In this document: positions 24,631-63,381 of the stretch, piece by piece
Layout: each line of letters begins with the position of its first letter
Numbering within the stretch: position 1 is the stretch's first letter
Assembly (NCBI RefSeq): GCF_050920415.1
Contig: NZ_CP169309.1
From: Escherichia coli
Lineage (GTDB): Bacteria; Pseudomonadota; Gammaproteobacteria; Enterobacterales; Enterobacteriaceae
Reading direction: 5' to 3' (one strand)
DNA length: 64,000 nt
The notes under the pieces: generated by a model
Databases searched by the model: none
The model's input: only the letters and a program-made list of their open reading frames with translations
What the model was told of the DNA's origin: nothing
Made by a program: the position numbers and the translations under genes

Positions 24631-26214
24631 TCACACCTCATACTCCATTTCGCCATCCTTATGCAGCGGAATAATCTGCACCTTCTGCACGCGATGGCTT
24701 TCCACCTGCAATGTTTTAAGCAAATAATCCCCCACCTGAACTTCTTCGCCAGGTTTTGGAATGCGCTGTAAATATTCCATCAGCAGCCCGGCAATGGTGT
24801 GATATTCACGTTTCTCATCCAGCGGCAGTGGTACATATTGCACCAGATCTTCCAGCGGCATATGACCATTCGCTGTCCAGGAACCGTCGGCATTTTTCTG
24901 AATATCATGACGGGCATCGATCTCTTCCACTTCGTTTGGCAAGTTACCAGCAATGGTTTCAGTGACGTCACTTAATGTCACAATCCCTTCCACCGAGCCA
25001 AACTCATCCACCACAAAAGCAAAGTGCGTGCGGGCATTACGGAACTGCTCCAGGGCAGGTAACAACGGTAAAGTTTCCGGGAACACCAGCGGCTGGCGAA
25101 TCAACACCCGCAGGTTGAGCGGTTCGCCACGCAGTGACTGTTGTAGCAGGTCGATAACGTGAACAACACCGAGCAAATCTTCTGCGTCATCGCCGTCGGT
25201 AACGACCAGACGCGTATGCTGATTTCGCTCCAGCAACTGGCGGATTTCTTCTTCCGGCGCGTTGAGATCGATATGCTCAATATCGTGGCGCGACGTCATA
25301 ATGCTGCTGACGGTACGCTGGTTAAGATTAAGTACCCGCTCAATCATCCGCCGTTCCTGCGGATTAAAGATCTGCTGGTTACCATAATCCACCAGCATGG
25401 ACGCGGTTTCGGCATCCAGTTCCGCATCTTCTTTTTGCCCGCTTAACAAGCGCATTACCGCTTCGGTAGTTCGCTGGCGCAGCGTCTGGTTAGCGGAGAG
25501 AAAACGTCGCCGGTTAAAGATGGCAAGTTGATTGAGCGCCTCGATCATTACCGAGAAACCAATGGCAGCATACAGATAGCCTTTCGGAATGACGAAGCCG
25601 AAACCTTCCGCCACCAGGCTAAAGCCAATCATCAACAGGAAACTTAGGCAGAGTATGACGATGGTCGGGTGACTGTTAACAAATTGCGTTAACGGCTTGC
25701 TGGCCATCAGCATCAGGCTGATCGCGATAACCACGGCGGCCATCATGACCAGTAAATGGTCGACCATCCCGACGGCAGTAATCACCGAGTCAAGTGAGAA
25801 GATGGCGTCCAGCACCACAATTTGCGTCACCACGCCCCAGAACTTCGCACCTTTGCGTTGCGTGGGGTTATTGCTGTCTTTCCCCTCCAGCCGTTCGTTC
25901 AACTCCATCGTGGCTTTGAACAGCAGGAAGAAACCACCAAACAGCATGATTAAGTCGCGGGCGCTAAAGGTAAACGAGCGGAAGCTGAACAGTGGTTGGG
26001 TCAGGGTGACCAGCCAGGAGATTGACGCCAGCAGTAACAGGCGCATTAACATTGCCAGCAGCAGCCCGGTAATCCGTGCGCGGTCGCGCTGCTTCGGCGG
26101 TAGTTTTTCGGCGAGGATGGCAATAAAGACCAGGTTATCAATGCCGAGGACCAGTTCGATCACAATCAGCGTGATTAACCCGGCCCAGATAGACGGATCG
26201 GCAATCCATTCCAT
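24631..26214 (-). CDS. yegH: TerC-family membrane protein with CBS and CorC/HlyC-type transporter-associated domains (YegH)
   Basis: ORF track frame is 549 aa; the likely start is complement(26212..26214) giving [18 protein letters not shown]... (~527 aa). Confidence 0.85.
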
Positions 26215-26420
26215 AGTAAGTACAAAACCTATTCGTTGTATGACAAATGTCACAATTCGATCATGGATAAATCGGGGCAAAAATGCAATGTTGCAGCACT
26301 ATTTATCTCATATAATTTGAGGGTTATAACCTCACATTATCCCTGAATTAAAAGTGGCAATAATAAAACATTATTTAAGAAATATCGCATATGGAGACAC
26401 TATATTAATTATTGTCAACC

Positions 26421-26434
26421 TAAAGAAATTCCTA
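26421..26434 (+). promoter_or_regulatory. Candidate RcsAB box upstream of the colanic acid operon
   Basis: taaagaaattccta is ~11/14 matches to my recalled RcsAB consensus TaAGaatatTCctA, ~450 bp upstream of wza. Confidence 0.35.
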
Positions 26435-26655
26435 AAAAACATATTGATTGACACTTAATATAATTCTTAAAAATAGCCAATTGCCGAATTGTTACCTTGC
26501 CTGCTATTCCGTTAGCTGTAACACTTCCTCCTGCATTATTGGAAGCCAATATTCAATTACCATAATGCCACCTTATATCTGGAAAATTAATTCACGGAAT
26601 AACGCTTTTTCATAATCAACTGCATGATGAAAGAGTTAGAAAATCTAAACTAAAT

Positions 26656-26694
26656 CAGTGTATTGGTAGCTAAAAAGCCAGGGGCGGTAGCGTG
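26656..26694 (+). promoter_or_regulatory. JUMPstart element with ops (GGCGGTAGCGTG) in the wza leader; RfaH recruitment site
   Basis: cagtgtattggtagctaaaaagccaggggcggtagcgtg; ops at 26683..26694. Confidence 0.75.
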
Positions 26695-26872
26695 TCTGGA
26701 CGCCTGAAAGACCAGTCTGAATTATTCTGTCAATAGCCTGCGGATGAAATCAATTTTTTTAGGACTGATGCCAGTTAAATTTTTATTCAATTAACTGCAA
26801 GGTAAATGTGCATGGCGACATTGCTATTAATAGTGCACAGGATAATTACTCTGCCAAAGTGATAAATAAACA

Positions 26873-28012
26873 ATGATGAAATCCAAAATGAAATTGATGC
26901 CATTATTGGTGTCAGTAACCTTGATAAGCGGTTGCACAGTACTTCCGGGCAGCAATATGTCGACGATGGGTAAAGACGTCATCAAACAGCAGGATGCTGA
27001 TTTCGATCTCGACAAAATGGTGAATGTTTATCCGCTGACCCCGCGCCTGATTGATCAATTACGCCCACGCCCGAACGTCGCGCGCCCCAATATGACGCTG
27101 GAAAGCGAGATTGCCAATTATCAATATCGTGTCGGGCCGGGCGACGTTCTTAATGTCACCGTCTGGGATCACCCGGAACTCACCACGCCAGCTGGTCAGT
27201 ACCGCAGCTCCAGCGACACCGGCAACTGGGTACAGCCTGACGGCACTATGTTCTACCCGTATATCGGCAAGGTTCACGTGGTGGGGAAAACGCTCGCTGA
27301 AATCCGCAGTGATATTACCGGGCGCTTAGCGACGTACATCGCTGACCCACAGGTGGACGTTAATATCGCCGCCTTCCGCTCGCAAAAGGCCTATATCTCC
27401 GGTCAGGTGAATAAATCCGGTCAACAGGCGATCACCAACGTACCATTGACCATTCTCGACGCCATTAACGCCGCAGGTGGCCTGACCGATACCGCTGACT
27501 GGCGCAACGTGGTGCTAACACACAATGGTCGTGAAGAACGCATTTCTTTGCAGGCGCTGATGCAAAACGGTGACCTCAATCAGAATCGACTGCTTTACCC
27601 CGGCGATATCCTCTACGTGCCGCGTAATGATGATCTGAAAGTGTTTGTGATGGGTGAAGTGAAGAAACAGAGCACCCTGAAAATGGACTTTAGCGGCATG
27701 ACCTTGACTGAAGCCCTGGGCAATGCCGAAGGTATCGACATGACCACCTCCAACGCCAGCGGCATCTTTGTCATTCGTCCGCTGAAAGGCGAGGGTGGGC
27801 GAAACGGCAAGATCGCCAATATCTACCAACTGGATATGTCCGATGCCACGTCGCTGGTGATGGCGACAGAATTCCGCCTGCAGCCTTATGACGTGGTGTA
27901 TGTCACCACCGCCCCGGTTTCCCGCTGGAACCGTCTGATCAATCAGTTGCTGCCAACTATTAGCGGTGTCCGTTACATGACGGATACAGCCAGCGACATT
28001 CATAACTGGTAA
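26873..28012 (+). CDS. wza: Outer-membrane polysaccharide export lipoprotein Wza
   Basis: 379 aa, lipobox-like LISGC near the N-terminus; first gene of the colanic acid cluster. Confidence 0.92.
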
Positions 28013-49787: not shown

Positions 49788-50681
49788 ATGACGAATTTAA
49801 AAGCAGTTATTCCTGTAGCGGGTCTTGGGATGCATATGTTGCCTGCCACTAAGGCGATTCCCAAAGAGATGCTACCGATCGTCGACAAGCCAATGATTCA
49901 GTACATTGTTGACGAGATTGTGGCTGCAGGGATCAAAGAAATCCTCCTGGTAACTCACGCGTCCAAGAACGCGGTCGAAAACCACTTCGACACCTCGTAT
50001 GAATTAGAATCTCTCCTTGAGCAGCGCGTGAAGCGTCAACTGCTGGCGGAAGTTCAGTCCATCTGCCCGCCGGGCGTGACCATTATGAACGTGCGTCAGG
50101 GCGAACCTTTAGGTTTAGGCCACTCCATTTTATGTGCACGACCCGCCATTGGTGACAATCCATTTGTCGTGGTACTGCCAGACGTTGTGATCGACGACGC
50201 GAGTGCCGATCCGCTGCGTTACAACCTTGCTGCCATGATTGCGCGCTTCAATGAAACAGGCCGTAGCCAGGTGCTGGCAAAACGTATGCCGGGTGACCTC
50301 TCTGAATACTCGGTCATCCAGACCAAAGAACCGCTGGATCGCGAAGGTAAAGTCAGCCGCATTGTTGAATTCATCGAAAAACCGGATCAGCCGCAAACAC
50401 TGGACTCAGACATCATGGCCGTTGGTCGCTATGTGCTTTCTGCCGATATTTGGCCGGAACTTGAACGCACTCAGCCTGGTGCATGGGGACGTATTCAACT
50501 GACTGATGCCATCGCTGAACTGGCGAAAAAACAGTCCGTTGATGCCATGCTGATGACAGGTGACAGCTACGACTGCGGTAAAAAAATGGGTTATATGCAG
50601 GCATTTGTGAAGTATGGACTACGCAACCTCAAAGAAGGGGCGAAGTTCCGTAAAGGGATTGAGAAGCTGTTAAGCGAATAA
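49788..50681 (+). CDS. galF: UTP-glucose-1-phosphate uridylyltransferase paralog GalF
   Basis: ORF track frame starts at 49776; the likely start is ATG at 49788 ([30 protein letters not shown]), 297 aa. Confidence 0.92.
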
Positions 50682-50939
50682 TGAAAATCTGACCGGATGT
50701 AACGGTTGATAAGAAAATTATAACGGCAGTGAAGATTCGTGGCGAAAGTAATTTGTTGCGAATATTCCTGCCGTTGTTTTATATAAACAATCAGAATAAC
50801 AACGAGTTAGCAATAGGATTTTAGTCAAAGTTTTCCAGGATTTTCCTTGTTTCCAGAGCGGATTGGTAAGACAATTAGCGTTTGAATTTTTCGGGTTTAG
50901 CGCGAGTGGGTAACGCTCGTCACATCGTAGGCATGCATG

Positions 50940-53984: not shown

Positions 53985-54398
53985 ATGATGGATATTAAAT
54001 TAATCTCTTTGCAAAAACATGGGGATGAGCGTGGTGCATTAATTGCTCTTGAAGAGCAACGAAATATACCTTTCGAAGTCAAAAGAATATATTACATACT
54101 CGAGACTCTTAAGGGAGTAAGACGCGGATTTCATGCGCACAAGGTTACTCGTCAGTTAGCTATTGTAGTCAAGGGAGCTTGTAAATTTCATCTGGATAAT
54201 GGTAAAGAAACAAAGCAGGTGGAACTTAATGATCCAACAATTGCGTTGCTGATAGAACCCTATATATGGCATGAAATGTATGATTTTAGTGATGATTGTG
54301 TGCTGCTTGTAATTGCGGATGATTTCTATAAAGAGTCTGATTATATACGCAATTATGATGATTTTATTAGAAGAGTAAATTCAATTGAGAATTCATAA
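53985..54398 (+). CDS. fdtA: dTDP-4-keto-6-deoxyglucose 3,4-isomerase (FdtA/QdtA-type, WxcM-like cupin)
   Basis: 137 aa; [13 protein letters not shown]...[11 protein letters not shown]...RGFHAHK is typical of FdtA-type isomerases. FdtA versus QdtA cannot be separated by eye. Confidence 0.7.
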
Positions 54399-54852
54399 GC
54401 TAAGTGACGTCCAGACAACATCAATTGGTGATGGAACAACTATCTGGCAGTTTGTTGTAATACTAAAAGGTGCTGTAATTGGTAATAATTGCAACATCTG
54501 TGCAAATACCTTGATTGAAAATAACGTTGTAATTGGTAACAATGTCACAGTCAAAAGCGGTGTGTATATTTGGGATGGCGTTAAAATAGAGGATAATGTT
54601 TTTATTGGTCCTTGTGTAGCATTTACAAATGATAAGTATCCTCGCTCTAAAGTCTATCCTGATGAATTTTTGCACACAATAATACGCAAAGGAGCATCAA
54701 TAGGTGCTAATGCAACCATCCTGCCAGGAATTGAAATTGGTGAAAAAGCAATCGTTGGTGCGGGGAGTGTCGTAACCAAAAATGTACCGCCATGCGCAAT
54801 AGTAGTAGGTAATCCAGCTCGATTTATTAAATGGGTAGAGGATAATGAATAA
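54385..54852 (+). CDS. fdtC: dTDP-3-amino-3,6-dideoxyhexose N-acetyltransferase (hexapeptide repeat, FdtC-like)
   Basis: 155 aa; hexapeptide repeats (IGNNCNI..., IGNNVTV..., IGANATI...); lies between the isomerase and the aminotransferase. Confidence 0.65.
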
Positions 54853-60796: not shown

Positions 60797-61873
60797 ATGG
60801 AAGAAAATAATATGAAGACGGTCGCTGTAGTTGGCACAGTGGGTGTTCCTGCTTGTTATGGTGGGTTTGAATCACTTGTTCAGAATCTAATTGATTATCA
60901 ATCTGATGGTATACAATATCAGATATTTTGCTCTTCAAAAAAATATAATAAAAAATTAAAAAATTATAAAAATGCAGAATTAATCTATTTGCCGATAAAT
61001 GCCAATGGCGTCTCTAGCATAATTTATGACATTATGTGTTTAATTATTTGTTTATTCAAAAGGCCAGATGTTGTTTTAATATTGGGGGTATCTGGTTGTT
61101 TATTTCTACCAATTTATAAACTATTTTCAAAATCAAAGATCATTGTCAACATCGATGGGCTTGAATGGCGTAGAAATAAATGGGGAACGTTTGCTAAGAA
61201 ATTTCTCAAAATATCTGAGGCGATATCTATTAGAATAGCTGATATTATCATTTCAGATAATCAAGCAATAGCTGATTATGTGGAAAATAAGTACAATAAA
61301 AAAAGCGTAGTTATAGCTTATGGGGGAGATCATGCTACTAATCTTAGTACACCGATAGACGATGATCAAAAAAAAGATGGTTATTATTTGGGGCTTTGTA
61401 GGATAGAGCCTGAGAATAATATAGAAATGATTTTGAATGCCTTCATTAATACAGATAAAAAAATTAAATTTATGGGTAATTGGGATAATAGCGAGTATGG
61501 GCGCCAGCTAAAAAAATATTATTCAAACTATCCAAATATCACACTACTAGAACCTAACTATAATATCGAAGAACTTTATAAACTAAGAAAAAATTGCCTT
61601 GCATACATTCATGGACACTCGGCTGGTGGAACAAACCCTTCTTTAGTTGAAGCGATGCATTTTAATATTCCTATTTTTGCTTTCGATTGTGACTTTAATC
61701 GTTACACAACTAATAATTTAGCTCATTACTTTAATGATTCTGAACAACTGACCTCATTAGCAGACAGTTTGTCTTTTGGAAATCTTAAATGTCAAGTATT
61801 AGATTTAAAAAAATATGCTGAAGATATGTATAACTGGAGGCATATAGCTGCTATGTATGAATCTATTTATTAA
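60797..61873 (+). CDS. O-antigen glycosyltransferase (GT4-like with N-terminal DUF1972-like region)
   Basis: 358 aa; E-x7-E-like NPSLVEAMHFNIPIFA. Confidence 0.7.
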   Translation: MEENNMKTVAVVGTVGVPACYGGFESLVQNLIDYQSDGIQYQIFCSSKKYNKKLKNYKNAELIYLPINANGVSSIIYDIMCLIICLFKRPDVVLILGVSGCLFLPIYKLFSKSKIIVNIDGLEWRRNKWGTFAKKFLKISEAISIRIADIIISDNQAIADYVENKYNKKSVVIAYGGDHATNLSTPIDDDQKKDGYYLGLCRIEPENNIEMILNAFINTDKKIKFMGNWDNSEYGRQLKKYYSNYPNITLLEPNYNIEELYKLRKNCLAYIHGHSAGGTNPSLVEAMHFNIPIFAFDCDFNRYTTNNLAHYFNDSEQLTSLADSLSFGNLKCQVLDLKKYAEDMYNWRHIAAMYESIY

Positions 61874-62125: not shown

Positions 62126-62244
62126 TTTTGTACTAAATAATTCGCATTTTATGTTTAAAAATATGAGATATTCCTCATTACCTGAAGCTGTTTTTTATTG
62201 CTTATACATGATCAAATACTCCTTACATAATTAAGGAGAACAAA

Positions 62245-63381
62245 ATGGAACTTAAAAAATTGATGGAACATATTTCTATTATCCCCGATTACAGACAAGC
62301 CTGGAAAGTGGAACATAAATTATCGGATATTCTACTGTTGACTATTTGTGCCGTCATTTCTGGTGCAGAAGGCTGGGAAGATATAGAGGATTTTGGAGAA
62401 ACACATCTCGATTTTTTGAAGCAATATGGTGATTTTGAAAATGGTATTCCTGTTCACGATACCATTGCCAGAGTTGTATCCTGTATCAGTCCTGCAAAAT
62501 TTCACGAGTGCTTTATTAACTGGATGCGAGATTGCCATACTTCAGATGATAAAGACGTCATCGCAATTGATGGAAAAACACTCCGGCATTCTTATGACAA
62601 GAGTCGCCGTAAGGGAGCGATTCATGTCATTAGTGCGTTCTCAACAATGCACAGTCTGGTCATCGGACAGATCAAGACGGATGAGAAATCCAATGAGATT
62701 ACAGCCATCCCTGAACTTCTTAACATGTTGGATATTAAAGGGAAAATTATCACAACTGATGCGATGGGTTGCCAGAAAGATATTGCAGAGAAGATACAAA
62801 AACAGGGAGGTGATTATTTATTCGCTGTAAAAGGAAATCAGCGTCGGCTTAATAAAGCCTTTGAAGAAAAATTCCCACTGAAAGAATTAAATAATCCAGA
62901 GCATGACAGTTATGCAATTAGTGAAAAGAGTCACGGCAGAGAAGATATCCGTCTTCATATTGTTTGCGATGACCCTGATGAACTTATTGATTTCACGTTT
63001 GAATGGAAAGGACTGAAAAAATTATGCGTGGCAGTCTCCTTTCGCTCAATAATAGCAGAGCAAAAGAAAGAGCCCGAAATGATGGTCAGATATTATATCA
63101 GTTCTGCTGATTTAACCGCTGAGAAGTTTGCGACAGCGATTTGAAATCACTGGCACGTGGAGAATAAGCTGCACTGGCGTCTGGACGTGGTAATGAATGA
63201 AGACGATTGTAAAATAAGAAGAGGAAATGCAGCAGAATTATTTTCTGGGATACGGCACATTGCTATTAATATTTTGACGAATGATAAGGTATTCAAGACA
63301 GGATTAAGACGTAAGATGCGAAAAGCAGCCATGGACAGAAACTATCTCGCGTCAGTCCTTGCGGGGAGCGGGCTTTACTAG
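62245..63381 (+). pseudogene. ISAs1-family (H-repeat-associated) transposase gene interrupted by a single in-frame TGA at 63142..63144
   Basis: ORF track shows 62245..63144 and 63157..63381 in the same frame. Read through the stop they give ~378 codons, typical of H-repeat/ISAs1 transposases (...[29 protein letters not shown]...). Confidence 0.8.

Follow-up and report, generated by a model that had tools for sequence, protein, structure and literature searches.

The motif TAAAGAAATTCCTA (box 1), in the AT-rich DNA between yegH and wza of this Escherichia coli, is very probably the RcsAB box of the colanic acid promoter, set in an upstream activating region of fixed geometry, and this is the best full explanation of what was found. 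The slime that E. coli and its relatives make under stress is mainly colanic acid, whose promoter is a classic read-out of Rcs envelope stress. The operator itself is already known, and the finding is correct but ordinary: a textbook operator has been recognised from raw sequence alone, with no new biology on the operator itself. The additions are modest: a promoter blueprint in which two boxes stand at set distances from each other and from an extended -10, a sister site (box 2) with stronger conservation than published box 1 and a likeness to the second RcsAB box of rcsA, and a rare allele of box 1.

The wza operator and its rare allele

The window, meaning the whole 64-kb stretch of DNA that was analysed, carries wza followed by wzb and wzc, the rest of the colanic acid cluster up to wcaM, and then galF and an O2/O50-type O-antigen cluster. 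A 792-bp query (26181-26972) matches 4,838 of 5,426 complete E. coli genomes and is flanked by yegH and wza in every case; it is 100% identical to the corresponding region of E. coli MFDS1022581 and about 96-97% identical to that of K-12. An earlier note on this DNA had described the yegH-wza region as AT-rich, which is borne out by a GC content of 33.7% against roughly 49% for the whole window. Its length, given there as about 590 bp from 26281, needs correction: 26281 is the limit of the longest mechanical yegH ORF and not the annotated start, and the yegH start codon lies at 26214 according to RefSeq in both the strain with the identical query region and K-12, so that the intergenic region spans 658 bp (Table 1).

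Table 1. Features of the yegH-wza region, with positions counted along the 64-kb window
Feature	Position	Strand	Basis
yegH, TerC-family inner-membrane protein, divergent neighbour	24631..26214	-	RefSeq of identical-query strain and K-12; ORF list
yegH-wza intergenic region, AT-rich, 658 bp, GC 33.7%	26215..26872		annotation and composition
Box 0, RcsAB-box-like 14-mer TAAGAAATATCGCA, candidate auxiliary site; centre ~-150	26376..26389		PWM, alignment
Conserved TTGTCAA(C/T)(C/A) block, adjoining the left side of box 1	26412..26420	+	alignment
Box 1, RcsAB box TAAAGAAATTCCTA, then A-tract to 26439; predicted centre ~-105	26421..26434	+	K-12 orthology, PWM, conservation
Box 2, RcsAB-box-like TAATATAATTCTTA, then AAAA; 12.3 bits; predicted centre ~-70	26456..26469	+	PWM, conservation
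Predicted -35, TTGCCT, starting 26/27 bp past the end of box 2	26497..26502	+	conservation, promoter scan
Predicted extended -10: TG (26517-18), n, AACACT (26520-25)	26517..26525	+	conservation
Predicted wza 5' untranslated leader, ~340 nt; inferred start 26532 +/- 3	26532..26872	+	conserved promoter
JUMPstart with ops GGCGGTAGCGTG at 26683-26694, RfaH loading site	26656..26694	+	Rfam RF01707
wza, gene 1 of the colanic acid (wza-wcaM) operon	26873..28012	+	annotation and ORF list

The earlier note had placed a motif resembling the RcsAB box at 26421-26434 on the plus strand, and it is there at exactly that position, the sole match to TAAAGAAATTCCTA in the window even when two mismatches are allowed. 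The aligned position in K-12 holds TAAAGAAACTCCTA, which shares 13 of 14 bases with box 1 in a base-for-base alignment. This K-12 sequence is the 'E. coli wza' entry among the curated RcsAB boxes of PMC4381331 (Table S1), where the wza entry cites Wehland & Bernhard 2000 and Stout 1996; the entries of the same table for rcsA, yjbE and flhD were located at their expected places in K-12. Since box 1 aligns with the curated wza box, it is the published operator with one base changed. The correspondence extends to the surroundings: the K-12 box occupies the same locus and the same interval (-452 to -439 relative to the wza ATG), with TTGTCAACC upstream and AAAA downstream, and differs in having C at position 9 where T is found here. 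Box 1 thus lies 439-452 bp upstream of the wza ATG and 207 bp from that of yegH, and upstream of both a conserved core promoter and wza, the first gene of the colanic acid cluster wza...wcaM. The conserved block on its left side has a counterpart in TGTTATCC, which resembles it and adjoins the rcsA box in K-12.

The RcsAB consensus relied on in the earlier note was correct and agrees with TaAGaa|tatTCctA, as quoted from Wehland & Bernhard 2000 in PMC3950696 and PMC4325325. Box 1 matches the consensus TaAGaatatTCctA at 11 of 14 positions, and at four of the five most conserved ones (T1, A3, G4, T10 and C11; PMC4325325). The exception is position 4, which is A, with the G shifted by one base; G is found there in 17 of 18 curated sites, and the published wza box likewise has A. 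The wza promoter has been described as consisting of -10 and -35 sites plus an RcsAB box (PMC2478693), and that source cites Wehland & Bernhard 2000 for RcsAB binding at the K-12 wza box and for the loss of activation on mutation of the box, rcsA or rcsB. The box upstream of cps is bound by phospho-RcsB together with RcsA. The 2000 study by Wehland and Bernhard is said to have shown that RcsAB binds the wza box and that mutating its conserved bases abolishes activation and gives an EPS-negative phenotype.

A scan with a curated matrix, which had been proposed as a check, leads to the same site. The position weight matrix (PWM) was a log-odds matrix built on 18 curated RcsAB sites with the wza entry left out. 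Box 1 scores 15.19 bits, within the leave-one-out range of the curated sites themselves (8.0-20.2 bits); it is the top site in the intergenic region, with no better one elsewhere in it, and over both strands of the 64 kb it ranks second among all loci. When the intergenic DNA was shuffled 2000 times with its dinucleotide content preserved, 0.85% of the shuffles reached this score. Six positions in the window score 11.8 bits or more, and three of them, boxes 0, 1 and 2, fall within 94 bp, a trio found in 0 of 2000 shuffles. The reading of this DNA as an Rcs-activated colanic acid promoter with an RcsAB box is thus supported by K-12 orthology, the curated table and the matrix scan.

The single base that separates box 1 from the published operator is itself unusual. 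Position 9 of the box (26429) is T in this genome and C in K-12 and about 99% of the E. coli genomes that have the region. With a 44-nt probe, 4,306 of 4,335 genomes are K-12-like (three differences from the probe) and 3 are identical to the window. T is the commonest base after A at this position in the curated sites, and the T allele is nearer the consensus, scoring 15.2 bits against 9.4 (9.36) for the K-12 C allele, a gain of 5.8 bits. With the C allele, as in K-12 and most E. coli, box 1 scores below both box 2 (12.3) and box 0 (11.8). The T allele is a rare natural variant that is predicted, from the matrix, to strengthen the published box.

Conservation of the upstream region

A Wza probe retrieved 80 loci from different Enterobacteriaceae species, and 75 upstream regions were aligned, anchored on ops. 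The search pattern demanded the right half of box 1, TC(C/T)(T/G)A, and that of box 2, TC(C/T)TA; these right halves are therefore common to the 68 matching regions by construction. One layout is found in 68 of the 75 species: TGTCAA, box 1, box 2, TTGCCT, 17 bp and TG-n-AACA(A/C)T. The start of box 2 follows the start of box 1 by 34 bp in 43 species, 35 bp in 23 (as in this window) and 32 bp in 2, and the gap from the end of box 2 to the -35 is 27 bp in 58 species and 26 bp in 10. TTGCCT is present in 63 of the 68, and the -10 hexamer is AACAAT in 64 of them and AACACT in Escherichia. The 17-bp spacer and the TG at -15/-14 occur in all 68, neither being demanded by the search pattern. Box spacing is likewise fixed though the pattern did not demand it, and the sequence between the blocks drifts freely. 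Fixed block lengths with drifting sequence in between are the signature of a spatially constrained assembly of activator and polymerase.

Within the boxes, conservation is uneven. In box 1 it covers the right half, demanded by the pattern, and the A-tract, (A/T)TCCTAAAA, with ATCCTA or TTCCTA as the half-site and TCCGA in four species; the left half is variable (TAAAGAA, TCAATAA, TGAGGCT and TACGGTT, for example), and the Citrobacter and Salmonella version, TCAATAAAATCCTA, scores only 3.2 bits. Box 2 is nearly invariant across genera, as TAATATTA(A/T)TCTTA. Its conserved part is again the right half and the A-tract, TCTTAAAA, which is also kept in two Franconibacter regions outside the pattern; the left half, nearly constant elsewhere (TAATATT), is replaced in Franconibacter. 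The right half is the RcsB half-site and faces the promoter (PMC3950696, PMC4325325), and TC(T/C)NA is part of the motif seen in an RcsB crystal structure (PMC7913699). The shared right halves would fit both this promoter-facing half-site and the TC(T/C)NA motif. An A-tract comes after each of the four activating boxes that were compared (boxes 1 and 2 of wza, and those of rcsA and yjbE) and is absent after the repressing flhD box. Conservation of box 0, which scores 11.8 bits on the minus strand and 10.1 on the plus strand, is limited to Escherichia, Citrobacter, Salmonella, Enterobacter and Kosakonia.

The closest parallel to the paired boxes is found at rcsA. The RcsAB binding region of that promoter comprises two boxes, both needed for activation, and its 'box1' overlaps TGAATTGCCATTAATATA (PMC11879457, citing Wehland & Bernhard 2000). 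The published 'box1' is the TTAATATAATTCCGTAA element, which in K-12 precedes the canonical rcsA box TAAGGATTATCCGA by 33 bp and has the 12-mer TTAATATAATTC in common with wza box 2. Both promoters thus have paired boxes whose starts are 33-35 bp apart, one canonical and one of the TTAATATAATTC type, and both are rich in A+T, well upstream of the gene, silenced by H-NS and marked by an A-tract after their activating boxes. However, the order is reversed, the TTAATATAATTC-type element being upstream of the canonical box at rcsA and downstream of it at wza, and the distance to the start is about 170 bp for the rcsA boxes, against a predicted 70 and 105 bp or so for those of wza. A search of the open full text found no mention of box 2 or box 0 of wza and no match to the literal box strings, which is weak evidence of novelty as such sequences usually appear in figures. 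Conserved and similar to rcsA 'box1' as it is, box 2 would be only a mildly new lead.

A second comparison is with the boxes bound by RcsB homodimers, as at rprA, osmC and flhDC P1 (TN(G/A)GAN4TC(T/C)NA; PMC7913699), which have the same right half-site, TC(T/C)NA, as wza. Those boxes work without RcsA and lie next to the core promoter or overlap it, whereas the wza boxes are predicted to lie at -70 and -105 and show the degenerate left halves that RcsA-dependent sites are expected to have.

Core promoter, leader and JUMPstart

The downstream part of the shared layout has the features of a sigma-70 extended -10 promoter: a -35-like hexamer, a 17-bp spacer, TG at -15/-14, A at -11 and T at -7. 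TTGCCT-17-TG-n-AACACT is accordingly predicted to be a weak promoter of this class; genera other than Escherichia have TGCAACAAT at the predicted extended -10. The invariance of the TTGCCT, 17-bp, TG and -10 block argues that it is a real core promoter. A generic promoter scan returned only one match, TTGGAA-16-CATAAT (26539-26566), which was rejected because conservation between genera is lacking there. Scanning the region with the sigma-E consensus, GGAACTT-N15-17-TCAAA, found no sigma-E-type promoter with at least 9 of 12 matches. RegulonDB, as paraphrased in PMC9764084, also assigns a sigma-E promoter to the wza operon; coordinates for the wza start are absent from PMC9764084 and PMC8117528.

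A start at 26532, as predicted from the conserved promoter, would place boxes 2, 1 and 0 at about -70, -105 and -150 and JUMPstart at about +125 to +163. The long untranslated leader claimed in the earlier note is therefore upheld in part. A leader of about 340 nt that includes JUMPstart is predicted, but box 1 lies upstream of the promoter, some 105 bp before the predicted start, and 26281-26872 is not leader throughout, as only about 26532-26872 is predicted to be transcribed. From about 26540 to 26650 the leader is unconstrained across genera, and differences cluster there even in the comparison with K-12. Primary-sequence conservation is strong 3' of JUMPstart, over 26720-26800 and 26836-26872. 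Outside the JUMPstart hairpin, the leader's consensus structure shows no covariation, with compensatory changes in 0 of 14 pairs.

JUMPstart had been placed downstream of box 1, and this is confirmed by a 39-nt plus-strand match to Rfam RF01707, scoring 57.3 bits where the gathering threshold is 35 (E=4e-12). Its hairpin is kept in all 24 aligned species, and the ops sequence GGCGGTAGnnTG is present on the non-template strand of the leader. In these respects wza is like the leaders of rfa, rfb, hly and kps, which likewise carry a 39-nt JUMPstart with a hairpin and have GGCGGTAGCGTG on their non-template strand; there is no difference of note from these leaders, and wza of CFT073 needs relief from H-NS at initiation before RfaH can act (PMC9765446). 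In that strain, ChIP shows H-NS covering the wza promoter, where it blocks initiation, and in an hns stpA double mutant a sigma-70 peak emerges upstream of wza and RfaH gives a signal at the wza ops. This ops is among only eight that lie in nontemplate operon leaders, the same eight that give an RfaH ChIP signal, and wza-wcaM is described as a 'cryptic' locus under RfaH control that still needs a signal for initiation (all PMC9765446).

A probable mechanism and its rivals

The following sequence of events is the likeliest account of the layout. The AT-rich yegH-wza region would be silenced by H-NS. Once the Rcs phosphorelay is active and RcsA, an unstable co-activator, accumulates, it would pair with phosphorylated RcsB, and this heterodimer would bind box 1 (about -105) and probably also box 2 (about -70); both boxes offer an RcsB-type right half (TTCCTA and TTCTTA) and an A-tract towards the promoter. 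Bound RcsAB may then recruit or stabilise RNA polymerase at a poor core promoter, presumably by contacting it. Transcription would begin at about 26532, and RfaH, loading at ops onto the elongating polymerase, would allow read-through of the operon of about 20 kb. The initiation signal of the cryptic wza-wcaM locus comes from the Rcs system. Sequence identity, matrix score, conservation and geometry are direct results of the comparison, from which the start site, the part played by box 2 and the way polymerase is contacted are inferred.

A more specific version is possible, if somewhat doubtful: wza may be driven by a rigid array of two boxes (three in some lineages), in which box 2 is the ancestral anchor at about -70 and box 1 is tunable by lineage, the same pairing being reused in reverse at rcsA. 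If so, natural variation in box 1 would tune the inducibility of the capsule between strains and species, with the rare T allele (+5.8 bits) and the very weak box 1 of Citrobacter and Salmonella as examples.

Might box 2 rather than box 1 be the principal, ancestral Rcs operator, with box 1 in an auxiliary or cooperative role and of a strength that differs between lineages? A score of 8 bits or more is reached by box 2 in 67 of the 68 species (median 13.5) and by box 1 in 43 of 68 (median 11.5), and the highest-scoring site ahead of the promoter is box 2 in 31 species and box 1 in 23. Box 2 also outscores box 1 wherever the latter carries the common E. coli C allele, and its predicted position near -70 is a typical class I distance. 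Yet the right half and the exact spacing of box 1 are equally invariant, in this window box 1 is the better site (15.2 against 12.3 bits), and the published mutational evidence, attributed to Wehland & Bernhard 2000, concerns box 1. This rival is rather unlikely, though it agrees with all the results computed here and is at odds only with that mutational evidence.

A class II arrangement, though mechanistically reasonable, is improbable, and less likely again. Here the box 1 operator would be centred at about -41 to -44 and overlap the -35, the -10 would be the TAATAT/TATAAT within box 2 (26456-26464), transcription would start at about 26468-26471 with a leader of some 400 nt, box 2 would be a core-promoter element, and TTGCCT...TGnAACACT would be a feature of the leader. 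The spacing of 34 or 35 bp between boxes 1 and 2 fits such a geometry, a relaxed scan finds a perfect TATAAT in E. coli at 26459-26464, and activators of the LuxR/FixJ type often bind at about -42. However, the conservation of box 2 resides in the right half and the A-tract (TCTTAAAA) and not in the -10-like left half, which is replaced in Franconibacter and has lost the essential A at -11 (TCATAT) in 5 species. The downstream block of -35, 17 bp, TG and -10, with its spacer and TG present in 68 of 68 species, would be left unexplained, and at rcsA the near-identical TTAATATAATTC element has been described as a box that RcsAB binds, some 170 bp before the start of that promoter (PMC11879457).

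Weakest of all, and hardly credible, is that box 1 is a chance match in AT-rich DNA or a site for H-NS or a yegH regulator with no role in the Rcs response: the consensus is AT-rich and the region 66% A+T, 0.49 matches to the exact 14-mer with up to two mismatches are expected per shuffled window, and the RcsB pattern TNRGAN4TCYNA, which has no discriminating power here, is not enriched in the window (43 found, 59 expected), but box 1 is positionally orthologous to the published box, its matrix score is rarely reached in shuffled DNA, its half-site and spacing are kept in 68 species while the flanks drift, and a yegH-directed role is opposed by its distance from the yegH ATG and by a geometry tied to the wza promoter.

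The boxes are also covered by a minus-strand ORF of 44-49 aa, which many E. coli annotations list as a 'hypothetical protein'. It is unannotated in K-12 and in the strain identical to the window over 26181-26972, and its overlap with the conserved regulatory blocks marks it as a likely over-call.

RcsAB-like boxes at the wza promoter

The published wza RcsAB box (box 1, 26421-26434) has box-like neighbours on both sides, boxes 2 and 0. Box 2 is almost unchanged across 68 species and is better conserved than the published box, and it has TTAATATAATTC in common with the 'box1' element of rcsA's promoter. At rcsA, yjbE and wza (371-418 of L085, the K-12 rcsA upstream sequence, and 343-360 of L086, each in its own coordinates), each activating RcsAB box examined has an A-tract of AAAA or AAAT after it, and the repressing flhD box has none. 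At both rcsA and yjbE, the distance from the box to the start codon downstream is 264 bp. Box 0 agrees on its plus strand with the consensus at five of the five most-conserved positions, and its conservation is limited to Escherichia, Citrobacter, Salmonella, Enterobacter and Kosakonia.

Box 1 itself carries an unusual allele in this strain: position 9 of the box (26429) is T, where K-12 has C, as do about 99% of E. coli genomes; the matrix gives the box 9.4 bits with C and 15.2 bits with T. Across the 792-bp region, an identity of at least 99% is reached by only 12 of 4,838 genomes, so the region belongs to a rare lineage or allele.

Features in and around the wza promoter and the O-antigen cluster (scores from a matrix of 18 curated RcsAB sites, wza excluded)
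Feature	Position	Strand	Score (bits)	Sequence	Remark
Conserved block	26295-26315			TTTATCTCATATAAT	~90-100 bp upstream of yegH start
Box 0, third box-like 14-mer	26376-26389	minus (score)	11.8	TAAGAAATATCGCA	
ORF, 44-49 aa	26415-26549	minus			covers boxes 1-2 and core promoter
Box 2, RcsAB-box-like	26456-26469			TAATATAATTCTTA	A-tract to 26473; starts 35 bp after start of published box
Conserved leader blocks, examples				ATTATTCTGTCAATAG, TTTTTAGGACTGATGCCAGTTA, CACAGGATAATTACTCTGCCAAAGTGATAAATAA	CACAGGATAATTACTCTGCCAAAGTGATAAATAA just before ATG
RcsAB-matrix match	50679-50692		12.0	TAATGAAAATCTGA	at galF stop and galF-rfbB spacer
RcsAB-matrix match	61195-61208		15.9	TAAGAAATTTCTCA	within low-GC O-antigen DUF1972 glycosyltransferase gene
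RcsAB-matrix match	62164-62177		13.2	TGAGGAATATCTCA	between DUF1972 glycosyltransferase gene and ISAs1 transposase pseudogene
O-antigen acyltransferase pseudogenes and ISAs1-family transposase	~54385-54832 and 62245-63381				RefSeq annotation of collinear strain

The wza leader

Between the promoter and the JUMPstart, about 80 bp (26573-26650) hold some 20 differences from K-12, substitutions and indels together, within flanks that are almost identical to it. The same stretch is also unconserved across genera, which suggests either a relaxed spacer or a patch introduced by recombination. On the 3' side of the JUMPstart, the primary sequence of the leader is strongly conserved at 26720-26800 and 26836-26872 among 76 aligned upstream regions, and RNAalifold found no compensatory pairs in these blocks. 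The motif TGTCAAT occurs in the flank of box 1 as well as in the conserved leader blocks.

The yegH side and the O-antigen cluster

Many E. coli genomes in RefSeq, such as O157:H7 Z570, list the minus-strand ORF across the promoter as a 'hypothetical protein'; it has no annotation in K-12 or in a strain that matches the window exactly over 26181-26972, and is probably an annotation artefact. The conserved block near yegH may be part of the promoter or 5' region of this divergent gene.

The three high-scoring matrix matches far from wza are probably driven by composition. In group 1 capsule strains a real RcsAB box occupies the place of the galF-proximal one. According to RefSeq's annotation of the collinear strain, two acyltransferase pseudogenes, both fragmentary, lie within the O-antigen cluster, whose wzx and wzy are of the O2/O50 type, and an ISAs1-family transposase that has an internal stop comes after the cluster.
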